Origin: Cellulosilyticum sp.
Lineage (GTDB): Bacteria > Bacillota > Clostridia > Lachnospirales > Cellulosilyticaceae
Length of the DNA stretch: 64,000 nt
Reading direction: 5' to 3'
Assembly: GCA_015058045.1 (NCBI GenBank)
Contig: SVDC01000017.1
Location: 1,327 to 65,326, forward strand
The notes below the pieces were generated by a model that made no database searches, was not told the DNA's origin, and saw only the letters and a program-made list of their open reading frames with translations. Every line of letters starts with the position of its first letter. Position 1 is the stretch's first letter. The position numbers and the translations under genes are program-made. Positions 41,977 to 44,578 of the stretch are shown one piece after another.

Positions 41977-42122
41977 CCTCCCTAATGCTATATTAAGATT
42001 ACTTTCATATTCTAATCTATTTTTGTGACTAATGGGTGAAAAATAATCAAATATACAAAAAAATCCTTAATTGAGTGCAATAATATACAAAAGCATGCAA
42101 GGAAATATCCATAAAATCTTAT

Positions 42123-42151
42123 GCATAATTATATGGGATTGTAAAATAATA
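42123..42151 (+). promoter_or_regulatory. Candidate sigmaG-type promoter of the DUF3892 gene
   Basis: GCATA-N17-AATAATA. Confidence 0.4.
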
Positions 42152-42241
42152 ACTGAGTAAAAGTACGAAGTAATAGAATATAATCCGTATCAGTATTACT
42201 TTGTAAATAAAATATATAGAGGTAGAATAGGAGATTATATC

Positions 42242-42550
42242 ATGGCAGAAGAAGATAGAGGTAATATGATTTTTTCTAATGTAGTGAATCGGGTGGTTTC
42301 AGAAGGTGGAGCCAATGCACAGGCCATTACAAAGCTTATTAAATCTGGAGGAGAAGTTGTAGGCTATGAACTAGAATCTGGTCAACATATTTCTGTTCAT
42401 CAAGCTATAGAAATGGCAAAAGGTAATATGCTTAAACATGTTGGGGTATCTACTTCAAAGGATGGCAGTGAATATATTAGGTCACTAGCTGATGGTGATG
42501 AATCTAACAATCTTGGCAACTTACCATCCATTACATCAGACTATCAATAA
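42242..42550 (+). CDS. DUF3892-family protein
   Basis: ITKLIKSGGEVVGYEL..G, QAIEMAK and EYIRSLADGDESNNLGNLP pattern; AGGAG RBS. Confidence 0.8.
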   Translation: MAEEDRGNMIFSNVVNRVVSEGGANAQAITKLIKSGGEVVGYELESGQHISVHQAIEMAKGNMLKHVGVSTSKDGSEYIRSLADGDESNNLGNLPSITSDYQ

Positions 42551-42554
42551 AAGT

Positions 42555-42594
42555 AAAAGGCTACCTAGTGAGAAATATGATTAGGTAGTTTTTT
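42555..42594 (+). terminator. Intrinsic terminator
   Basis: AAAAGGCTACCTAG...TTAGGTAGTTTTTT. Confidence 0.65.
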
Positions 42595-42732
42595 ATGTGA
42601 AGTTATGAGTTGATAAATTGTAAAAAATAGGATAAAATATAAAAGTATGTAAGGTTTTATATAATCTGTTTATGTAGATATATTCCAACAACCTATAATA
42701 GGTAGCATGAAATAGCGTTATTATTGAATATT

Positions 42733-42834
42733 AAAAAAGAAGCGATAGGGGGGCTATCGCTTTAATGAATAAGAACTATATAATATTGGGGTTTATGAGA
42801 TAATTGGAATGGGGAGGAATCATAATTATCTCAT
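42733..42834 (-). ncRNA. Candidate ~100-nt small RNA with C-rich (anti-SD) loop
   Basis: Minus strand: perfect 11-bp stem ATGAGATAATT/AATTATCTCAT enclosing ATGATTCCTCCCCATTCC, a second AACCCCAA motif, then a terminator AAGCGATAG-CCCCC-CTATCGCTT followed by CTTTTTT. Confidence 0.7.
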
Positions 42835-42838
42835 GAAT

Positions 42839-42867
42839 TAGTATGGTTCAATAAAAAAATATTATTC
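42839..42867 (-). promoter_or_regulatory. sigmaG-consensus promoter driving the candidate sRNA
   Basis: Minus strand reads GAATA-N17-CATACTA, an exact fit to GHATR-N17/18-CATWHTA. Confidence 0.65.
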
Positions 42868-43088
42868 TTTAATAAGCGAGTATCCAAATAGTGACAATTT
42901 CTTATAAAGTGGCTAGAAATATATTGGAAATTTATAGATATTACTTATAAACTCCATAAAATTTCCTATGTACTTAAAAACATGAAGGCGTTATAATATT
43001 AGGGGATATATACCTATTAAATATAAAAGAATCAAGCGTAAGATAGTAAAGCATGTAACCGCATATTTACTGAGGGGGTGCCATAATA

Positions 43089-43376
43089 TTGGAACATTTA
43101 GAAGGGGCAAAGCAATATTGTAATAGTTGCGGTCGAGTAATAAATGTAGAGGGTAGTAGTCAAGAGGATCATTTGCAGATAAGAAAGGTTTGGAGTTACT
43201 TTTCTTCAAATGAATTAGTGGGGCAAAGCTTTAATATGTGTCAGGCATGTTATAACAAGATGATATCAAATTTTAAAATACCAGTAGAAGAAATTGTGAT
43301 TGATGATATGCCTATCTATTCAGATGAGCAAATTGACGAGATGAATGCAGCTTACGCAGCAGAGTTATGTAAGTAG
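43089..43376 (+). CDS. Small CxxC...CxxC putative zinc-binding protein
   Basis: GAGGGGG RBS and TTG start; YCNSCG, WSYFS and MCQACY..MI..FKIPV. Confidence 0.7.
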   Translation: MEHLEGAKQYCNSCGRVINVEGSSQEDHLQIRKVWSYFSSNELVGQSFNMCQACYNKMISNFKIPVEEIVIDDMPIYSDEQIDEMNAAYAAELCK

Positions 43377-43379
43377 GAT

Positions 43380-43424
43380 AAAAGAGTGTTTAAAAGACAG
43401 TAGAGACTTTTAAACACTCTTTTT
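43380..43424 (+). terminator. Intrinsic terminator
   Basis: AAAGAGTGTTTAAAAG-N10-CTTTTAAACACTCTTT. Confidence 0.85.
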
Positions 43425-43666
43425 GTTATTTTATTAGAGATATAAAAGTTTCAGATGATTGTGTGTCATGATCTTATAAAAATGAATAGAGAGTGTGTGA
43501 ATAAATGGAGTTAAAATGGAAAAAATTATAAAGAATAAAATTGAACTTAAATATAATAATTTAGATGAGTTAGAGTTGGAAATGCTACTTAGGAATTAAG
43601 GTTGATGATTGTAACAAATGAGTGAAAGGGATATAATAACAGTAGTACAAGAAAGGAATTAAAATT

Positions 43667-44578
43667 ATGTTAGACATTTGTTTACTTGGGACAGGAGGGA
43701 TGCTTCCACTTCCTGATCGCTATTTAACAGCAATGCTTGCTAGATTTAATGGAAGAAAGCTTTTAATTGATTGTGGAGAGGGTACGCAAGTAACGATGCG
43801 TCTTCTTGGATGGGGATATAAAACTTTAGATATTATCTGTTTTACACATTATCATGGGGACCATGTTACAGGACTTCCAGGACTTTTACTCACACTGAAT
43901 AATACAGGTAGAACAGAACCGCTAACACTGATTGGGCCGCCAGGACTTAGAAAAGTAGTAGAAGGATTAACAGTCGTTTCACGTGATATTGGGTTTGAAC
44001 TAAAATTTATGGAGTTAAGTTATGAGAAGCAAAGTCTTCAAGTAGGTGATTTTCATATTACCGTGCTGCCAGTACCACACAATGTAAAATGTTTTGCTTA
44101 TACCATTGAGAATCATCGTTTACCAAAGTTCTTAGTAGAAAAAGCGAGAGAAAATGAAGTACCACAACGTATTTGGAAAGCGCTGCAACAAGGAAATACG
44201 CTAGAGTTTGAAGGGAAAACTTATACACCAGATATGGTATTAGGAGAGGCGAGAAAAGGGATTAAGATTTCTTATAGTACAGATTGTAGACCAACACAAG
44301 AATTGCAGGAAATGATTGCAGGTTCAGACTTATTTATTTGTGAAGGAATGTATACAGATGATGAGTACTTATCACAGGTGAAAAAGCATAAACATATGCT
44401 AGCCTCTGAAGCAGCTACTCTTGCAAAAAATGCGCAGGTAAAGGAATTATGGCTTACACACTTTAGTCCAGCCCTACCAACAGCATATATTAATGTAAAT
44501 GATGTTAAGAAGATTTTCCCCAATACTATAGCGGGTACTGATCGTATGATCACAACAATTGATTTTGAAGAAGAATAA
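43667..44578 (+). CDS. rnz: Ribonuclease Z
   Basis: LGTGG..P, LIDCGEGTQ, THYHGDH, TDCRP and LTHFSP motifs; flexible-arm GP-like segment. Confidence 0.92.
   Translation: MLDICLLGTGGMLPLPDRYLTAMLARFNGRKLLIDCGEGTQVTMRLLGWGYKTLDIICFTHYHGDHVTGLPGLLLTLNNTGRTEPLTLIGPPGLRKVVEGLTVVSRDIGFELKFMELSYEKQSLQVGDFHITVLPVPHNVKCFAYTIENHRLPKFLVEKARENEVPQRIWKALQQGNTLEFEGKTYTPDMVLGEARKGIKISYSTDCRPTQELQEMIAGSDLFICEGMYTDDEYLSQVKKHKHMLASEAATLAKNAQVKELWLTHFSPALPTAYINVNDVKKIFPNTIAGTDRMITTIDFEEE

Follow-up and report, generated by a model that had tools for sequence, protein, structure and literature searches.

A probable new family of C-rich small RNAs with a forespore-type promoter in Cellulosilyticaceae

Post-transcriptional control inside the forespore is almost unexplored, and a gene-free interval of a Cellulosilyticum genome raises the question of whether a small RNA (sRNA) could be made from it in this compartment, to which family such an RNA would belong, and what it would do. 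The window, i.e., the whole stretch of 64,000 nucleotides that was analysed, holds no gene between 42551 and 43088 in its ORF listing. An earlier note, written from the sequence, had proposed that the minus strand of this interval carries an independent sRNA gene, comprising a forespore-type promoter, an anti-Shine-Dalgarno (anti-SD)-like loop and its own terminator. The relevant features, in window coordinates, are as follows.

42242-42550, plus strand: DUF3892 gene, flanking the sRNA interval on one side
43089-43376, plus strand: Zn-ribbon ORF (95 aa), flanking the interval on the other side
42863..42867, minus strand: -35 box GAATA, read directly; family consensus G[ACT]ATA
42839..42845, minus strand: -10 box CATACTA, separated from the -35 box by 17 nt; consensus of the family [CT]A[TAC]A[CA]TA
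42733..42835, minus strand: predicted sRNA transcript of ~100 nt, from fold and covariance model, both ends being predicted
42833-42835, minus strand: probable start, about 5-7 nt past the -10 box; the 3' end would lie within the T-run
42824..42834, minus strand: 5' arm of stem-loop 1, ATGAGATAATT, with conserved core GAGATAATT
42806..42823, minus strand: 18-nt loop AUGAUUCCUCCCCAUUCC, the first C-rich region, complement of GGAAUGGGGAGGAAUCAU
42795..42805, minus strand: 3' arm of stem-loop 1, AATTATCTCAT, in perfect 11-bp pairing with ATGAGATAATT
42786..42794, minus strand: second C-rich region AAACCCCAA, unpaired in all predicted folds
42763..42785, minus strand: variable AU-rich linker, longer in most other genera, with an extra AAAACCCUAAA motif
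42733..42762, minus strand: intrinsic terminator AAGCGATAG-CCCCC-CTATCGCTT (42762-42740), then CTTTTTT; its loop provides the third C-rich region of most members

The individual elements listed in the earlier note were all recovered. GAATA-N17-CATACTA reads as described on the minus strand at 42867-42839, the perfect 11-bp stem with its C-rich loop begins four nt past the -10 box, and the second C-rich motif lies at 42794-42786. The CCCCC terminator loop is likewise present in the window, but it is not universal, at least three consecutive C being found in 16 of the 21 aligned sequences. An automatic scan lists this terminator as the sole terminator-like site of positions 42000-43700. The 106-nt RNA folds at -20.8 kcal/mol, versus -5.6 +/- 2.1 for 200 dinucleotide shuffles (z = -7.2), and the predicted folds of all members follow a common plan, in which an unpaired C-rich middle separates the 5' hairpin from the terminator. 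The loop is the exact complement of GGAAUGGGGAGGAAUCA (the loop complement is also noted as GGGGAGGAAUCA) and has CCUCC in common with the anti-SD at the 16S rRNA 3' end, GAUCACCUCCUU, or GAU..CCUCC when the shared positions upstream are counted. Since the sRNA overlaps no gene, it is neither an antisense RNA nor a leader. A paralogue search found the 156-nt stretch to be single-copy in its own genome.

On the plus strand, a hairpin and T-run of the DUF3892 gene (CTACCTAGTGAGAAATATGATTAGGTAGTTTTTT, 42555-42600) faces the sRNA terminator; it is absent from the automatic terminator scan, whose limit on loop length it exceeds. Together, the two would constitute convergent terminators ~140 nt apart.

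How far the element extends among relatives was addressed by several searches. BLAST detected it in 12 of 13 congeneric genomes and in six further genera of Cellulosilyticaceae. With a covariance model built from the 21-sequence alignment (model R1, alignment A3), exactly one copy was found in 30 of the 47 Cellulosilyticaceae genomes, belonging to 9 of 14 genera, at 72-127 bits (114 bits at the window locus); the same model returned nothing credible in 254 other genomes of the order, merely 28-33-bit matches driven by the terminator. An exact-pattern scan of 185,579 species' genomes recovered Cellulosilyticum, Sporanaerobium, Niameybacter, Zhenhengia, Holtiella and other Cellulosilyticaceae, as well as a few chance matches in unrelated phyla that have none of the other features. 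Three true members, and no more, were added by a metagenome scan; one metagenomic member (L169) keeps stem-loop 1 and ACCCCAAUAU, and its terminator is unrelated. Judged by these genome searches, the sRNA family is confined to Cellulosilyticaceae, a family of gut and rumen bacteria. A degenerate look-alike, UGAUUUCUUCCGAUUC ... AAAACUCUAAUAUUA, is present in another family of the order (genome G036, L113 101-182, plus strand); it displays C-to-U changes, has no clear stem or terminator, and may be a decayed relative or a chance resemblance.

Within the family, SpoIVA is encoded in all 14 genera, including the five that are devoid of the sRNA. The presence of the sRNA thus does not track sporulation capacity and, as five spore-forming genera do without it, the sRNA is not essential for sporulation. 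At the syntenic site of these five genera, a different gene is found upstream of the Zn-ribbon gene, and inspection revealed no related element.

In the Cellulosilyticaceae genera that carry the sRNA, the gene order DUF3892> <sRNA Zn-ribbon(95 aa)> rnz> DUF6715> is kept. The flanking proteins have diverged, RNase Z being 71-94% identical and the Zn-ribbon protein 31-72%; the latter had no match in Pfam or NCBIfam. Other conserved signals at this locus are associated with the Zn-ribbon gene. A box of ~20 nt, AAGTA[TC]A[TC]AGG[TA]AA[AT]TTTTAT, lies upstream of it (window 42950-42975, minus-strand reading AAGTACATAGGAAATTTTATGGAG; loci L142-L152) and, being found in all genera, also in those without the sRNA, is part of the Zn-ribbon control region and not of the sRNA; in the window, it forms part of an imperfect inverted repeat. 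The leader of the Zn-ribbon ORF (window ~43040-43088, plus strand) in turn contains a short hairpin, CCG...CGG, with A/GGGGGGUGCC immediately behind it and then a UUG, AUG or GUG start codon, an arrangement kept in nearly all genera; its ribosome-binding region is G-rich and unusually conserved.

In the alignment of the sRNA itself, the 14-nt loop segment UGAUUCCUCCCCAU is invariant across nine genera, and the single-stranded ACCCCAA is nearly so, ACCC being fixed and the fourth C almost fixed (CCCU in one genus). For the 17 stem pairs, 100% of the alignment cells hold a standard pair, versus 30-49% when the 3' partner is slid. In stem-loop 1, nine core pairs are paired in 100% of the 21 sequences and every change is an A-to-G leading to G.U; in the terminator, eight pairs are kept at 100%, and the changes seen there are a compensatory one from CG to GC and another from U-A to U-G. 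One-sided substitutions amount to 13, at six pair positions (five in stem-loop 1 and one in the terminator), and the number of independent events behind them is probably close to that of the positions, i.e., six. All 13 are A-to-G on the minus strand and give G.U pairs there; an RNA of the opposite strand would instead have A.C mismatches. Conservation of loop and stems in relatives was what the earlier note had chosen beforehand as a test of its proposal, and both are kept across nine genera. Formal covariation is weak, with a single compensatory pair and 21 of 500 shuffles reaching the observed score, because the stems barely vary.

These patterns point to selection acting on an RNA of the minus strand while the flanking proteins diverged. 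The promoter match alone would not be beyond chance, as the 4.16-Mb genome contains 98 occurrences of the relaxed motif; it is the conservation that places the unit as a whole beyond chance. Reading the element as a real stand-alone sRNA gene, in line with the earlier note, is thereby very probable. It is extremely improbable that it is instead a micro-peptide gene, or an inverted repeat that acts at the DNA level or arose by chance. No ORF of at least 30 aa is found on the minus strand between promoter and terminator, in agreement with the earlier note's statement that the gene-free interval holds no credible one. The only small frame, which would be the candidate micro-peptide, has 15 codons (AUG AUU CCU CCC ...) and begins inside the loop, but it is not preceded by an SD, starts with GUG in other genera, has no start at all in one of them, and is shifted from genus to genus by indels; it is thus not conserved. 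As for a repeat that matters only as DNA or by accident, the strand-specific G.U changes and the conserved promoter and terminator favour an RNA, and the element is single-copy and syntenic.

When such an RNA would be made is suggested by its promoter. Of 28 distinct upstream regions, 27 have the pattern G[ACT]ATA-N17/18-[CT]A[TAC]A[CA]TA in register, at 5-6 nt from the hairpin, whose stem measures 9-11 bp among members; in these regions, the -35 box reads GCATA (15), GTATA (8) or GAATA (4) and the spacer measures 17 nt (21 regions) or 18 nt (6 regions). Both the sequence of the spacer and that upstream of the -35 box have diverged between members. For comparison, the sigmaG consensus, with which the -10 box of the window agrees, is GHATR-17/18-CATXHTA and that of sigmaF is GCATR-15-GGHRARHTX. 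As the -10 box is preceded at two to three nt by a sigmaF-like GG in several genera, and not in the window, the promoter is described here as "sigmaF and/or sigmaG". In the same genome, the motif precedes an alpha/beta-type SASP gene in the form of an almost identical promoter, GAATA-N17-CATATTA, and is also found before DUF1540, DUF378, YetF/DUF421, PdaA-like deacetylase and TepA-like Clp protease genes. In C. difficile, the pdaA and DUF421 genes are sigmaG-dependent, and the study that reported this considers the clostridial forespore consensus to be very similar to that of B. subtilis (PMC3789822). Taken as sequence, the promoter is therefore likely to be of the forespore sigmaF/sigmaG type.

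A genuine sRNA that is not sporulation-specific, transcribed either by sigmaA from a -10-driven promoter or by the mother-cell factor sigmaE, is rather unlikely. The -10 hexamers TATAAT, TATACT and CATACT would be acceptable for sigmaA, and in some genera the -35 reads TTGCAT or TTGTAT; yet the site was not flagged by a sigma-70 scan, the spacing from TTGCAT would be 18-19 nt, and the -35 hexamers are poor in Cellulosilyticum. For sigmaE, GAATAAT-N15-CATACTAA of the window fits the -35 box and six of the eight -10 positions of the consensus, but a CATACA-T box exists in no member. Against both factors, the hexamer is followed by an invariant A which, together with G-ATA at -35, constitutes the forespore signature, and the genes preceded by the motif in the same genome, that for SASP and others with forespore-regulon relatives, are also at odds with a promoter unrelated to sporulation. 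GTATA-N17-CATACTA was additionally noticed 69 nt upstream of codY (genome G000, contig C25, minus strand, ~83553), where it may be a chance occurrence or a sporulation-specific codY promoter.

The next question is whether this RNA is already catalogued. An Rfam scan at the gathering score gave no match at the locus, and a search of 551 nt with all 4227 Rfam families at E <= 10 yielded only two chance microRNA matches, both outside the element; it is the inverted repeat containing the ~20-nt box that drew them. The covariance models of RsaE (RF01820) and LhrC (RF00616) similarly gave no match at E <= 10. The Rfam check foreseen in the earlier note thus speaks for a new family as opposed to a catalogued one. 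As far as sequence and model comparisons go, this is a previously uncatalogued sRNA family of a known kind.

The known RNA that deserves the closest scrutiny is CsfG, reportedly described in B. subtilis by Marchais and co-workers in 2011. In the literature, CsfG is equated with the reverse strand of the Rfam ylbH leader RF00516 (PMC3574147) and is given three C-rich regions (PMC4409812). Reviews treat it as the one widely conserved forespore sRNA, for which no target is established (among them PMC8583004), and C. difficile is said there to have none (PMC8583004). As seen at loci L115-L141 of other Clostridia, the strand modelled by RF00516 ("ylbH leader", a cis-regulatory type in Rfam) is the opposite one to that of CsfG. 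This model had no match at the window locus (E <= 10), nor in whole-genome scans of 16 genomes of the family; the B. subtilis control scored above the cut-off, the gathering score being 50 bits. In a 400-genome sample of the class, sub-threshold matches of 27-40 bits recur in particular families. Many are evident CsfG genes, in which a forespore-type promoter is followed by a variable 5' hairpin, then by the near-invariant core AUUCCCCAUAGAGCUCUUCCUUCAAUUUCUCCUCUCCC and by a terminator. Because they fall below the 50-bit gathering score, the CsfG genes of these Clostridia are unannotated. No canonical CsfG was found in Cellulosilyticaceae or in the sampled Lachnospirales.

Could the window sRNA then be a highly diverged CsfG orthologue and not a separate family? 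Promoter type, size, the three C-rich regions and the terminator are alike, there is a resemblance between the loop GAUUCCUCCCCAU and the motif GAUUCCCCAU of clostridial CsfG, and an orthologue would occupy a family that, like the sampled Lachnospirales, has no canonical CsfG. In addition, R1 matches clostridial CsfG loci on the CsfG strand, with marginal E-values of 0.03-0.1, about half of its 22 matches being CsfG. Conversely, RF00516 is silent at the locus even at E <= 10, and the CsfG core AUAGAGCUCUUCCUUCAAUUUCUCCUCUCC (...UUCCCCAUAGAGCUCUUCCUUCAAUUUCUCCUCUCC...), near-invariant from Bacillus to several clostridial families, is absent from the window sRNA, only GAUUCC(UC)CCCAU being common to both. 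A clostridial CsfG model (R2) reaches E ~5e-4 on the window sRNA family through the AU-rich part and the terminator only, with the core deleted; the cross-matches of the two models are thus marginal and reflect architecture. UCCCCAU, which in CsfG follows the variable 5' hairpin, is located here inside the loop of a conserved hairpin. There is also no flanking gene in common: none of six window neighbour proteins is encoded beside clostridial CsfG, the only match being an unrelated ABC ATPase at L130, which is not a CsfG locus. Orthology with CsfG is, on balance, decidedly unlikely; membership of the CsfG family is not supported, while an analogy of design is. Of the two options given by the earlier note, a distant CsfG analogue or a new family, the analogue is the better one; neither the CsfG model nor its core was matched.

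Taken together, a new family of forespore C-rich sRNAs that pair with SD regions is the best overall explanation, with a probability of roughly 0.55. Under this explanation, the sRNA would be transcribed in the forespore by RNA polymerase carrying sigmaF and/or sigmaG, and stabilized by its terminator and by the 5' hairpin, which would start essentially at +1. Its C-rich regions would then pair with the G-rich SD regions of mRNAs, so that translation initiation would be blocked while the spore develops or lies dormant. This is the mode of action of C-rich-region sRNAs of Firmicutes such as RsaE/RoxS and LhrC, and probably also of CsfG. By analogy with these RNAs, its function is most plausibly that of an SD-pairing translational repressor; the chances that this precise mechanism applies are about even.

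Candidate targets were also considered. In a duplex scan of 7074 candidate start regions, the real loop bound no better than five shuffled loops. A 10-nt match, AUAAUAUUGG, exists at the start of the neighbouring, divergent Zn-ribbon gene, but this match is specific to the closest relatives of the window and was treated as chance, so that a cis-linked target was not retained. The best long match is at the start of the lysyl-tRNA synthetase gene lysS of genome G000 (contig C109, locus L178), where AUGAGGAGGAAUCAGAAGUG matches the loop complement at 13 of 14 nt; Cellulosilyticum and one other genus retain GAGGAGGAAUCAG, which is shortened to GGAGGAA elsewhere. As the extended pairing is full-length in two genera only, lysS was rejected as a conserved target.

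With 14 invariant nucleotides, the loop is conserved beyond the needs of SD pairing, so that it may also have a protein or the ribosome as its partner, or serve as a general anti-SD decoy. That the sRNA binds or titrates a protein or the ribosome, for instance as a decoy resembling the 16S anti-SD, and does not act on particular mRNAs, is unlikely, even though neither the target scan nor lysS yielded a specific target and GAU..CCUCC is shared with the 16S 3' end. The gene context suggests no protein partner, and the characterized RNAs of like architecture described in PMC4132741 and PMC4409812 all pair with SD regions. A more specific version, still a long shot, is that the invariant loop UGAUUCCUCCCCAU acts as an abundant and stable anti-SD mimic, stored in the forespore and competing with 16S rRNA for strong SDs. 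Should this be true, the sRNA would be a general translational brake and not a gene-specific regulator, lowering global initiation during spore maturation or dormancy, or shaping which mRNAs are translated first at germination.

The sRNA would represent a second, independent family with the promoter type and C-rich design of CsfG, with a loop invariant across nine genera, and the existence of such a second family suggests that RNAs displaying anti-SD-like sequences are a solution to which the forespore has recourse repeatedly. It would also fill a gap, since Lachnospirales, like C. difficile, appear to be without CsfG. Moreover, the 14 invariant loop nucleotides are an obvious segment to mutate, making this a compact system to probe what such RNAs do. 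Its practical importance is modest, given the narrow family and the five spore-forming sister genera without the sRNA.

Like CsfG, the window sRNA is an RNA of ~100 nt from endospore formers, with a sigmaF/sigmaG-type promoter, three C/U-rich unpaired regions, UCCCCAU and a Rho-independent terminator; it is limited to a single family, in contrast to CsfG, which spans Bacilli and several clostridial families. Its closest architectural parallel is LhrC of Listeria monocytogenes, in which C-rich motifs (CUCCC) are similarly present in the 5' hairpin loop, the single strand and the terminator loop, and in which the CU-rich motifs of loop A, of the single strand and of the terminator loop can each bind, redundantly, to the SD region of its targets (PMC4132741, PMC4409812). 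The two differ in that there is no sequence or model match between them and in that LhrC is encoded by five genes and responds to envelope stress via LisRK, whereas the window sRNA has a single gene copy, and this gene a forespore-type promoter. RsaE/RoxS and FsrA also expose several C-rich regions in loops or single strands, and C-rich-region sRNAs such as these pair with G-rich SDs, thereby blocking initiation (PMC4409812). They are distinct from the window sRNA in taxonomic range, the latter has no Rfam match at E <= 10, and control is different as well, by ResDE/NO or Fur for RsaE/RoxS and FsrA and by a sporulation-type promoter here. RsaE/RoxS, FsrA and LhrC form a functional class of trans-acting sRNAs with C-rich regions, not one homologous family, and the window sRNA has several hallmarks of this class: its own promoter and intrinsic terminator, no conserved ORF, and exposed, conserved C-runs.
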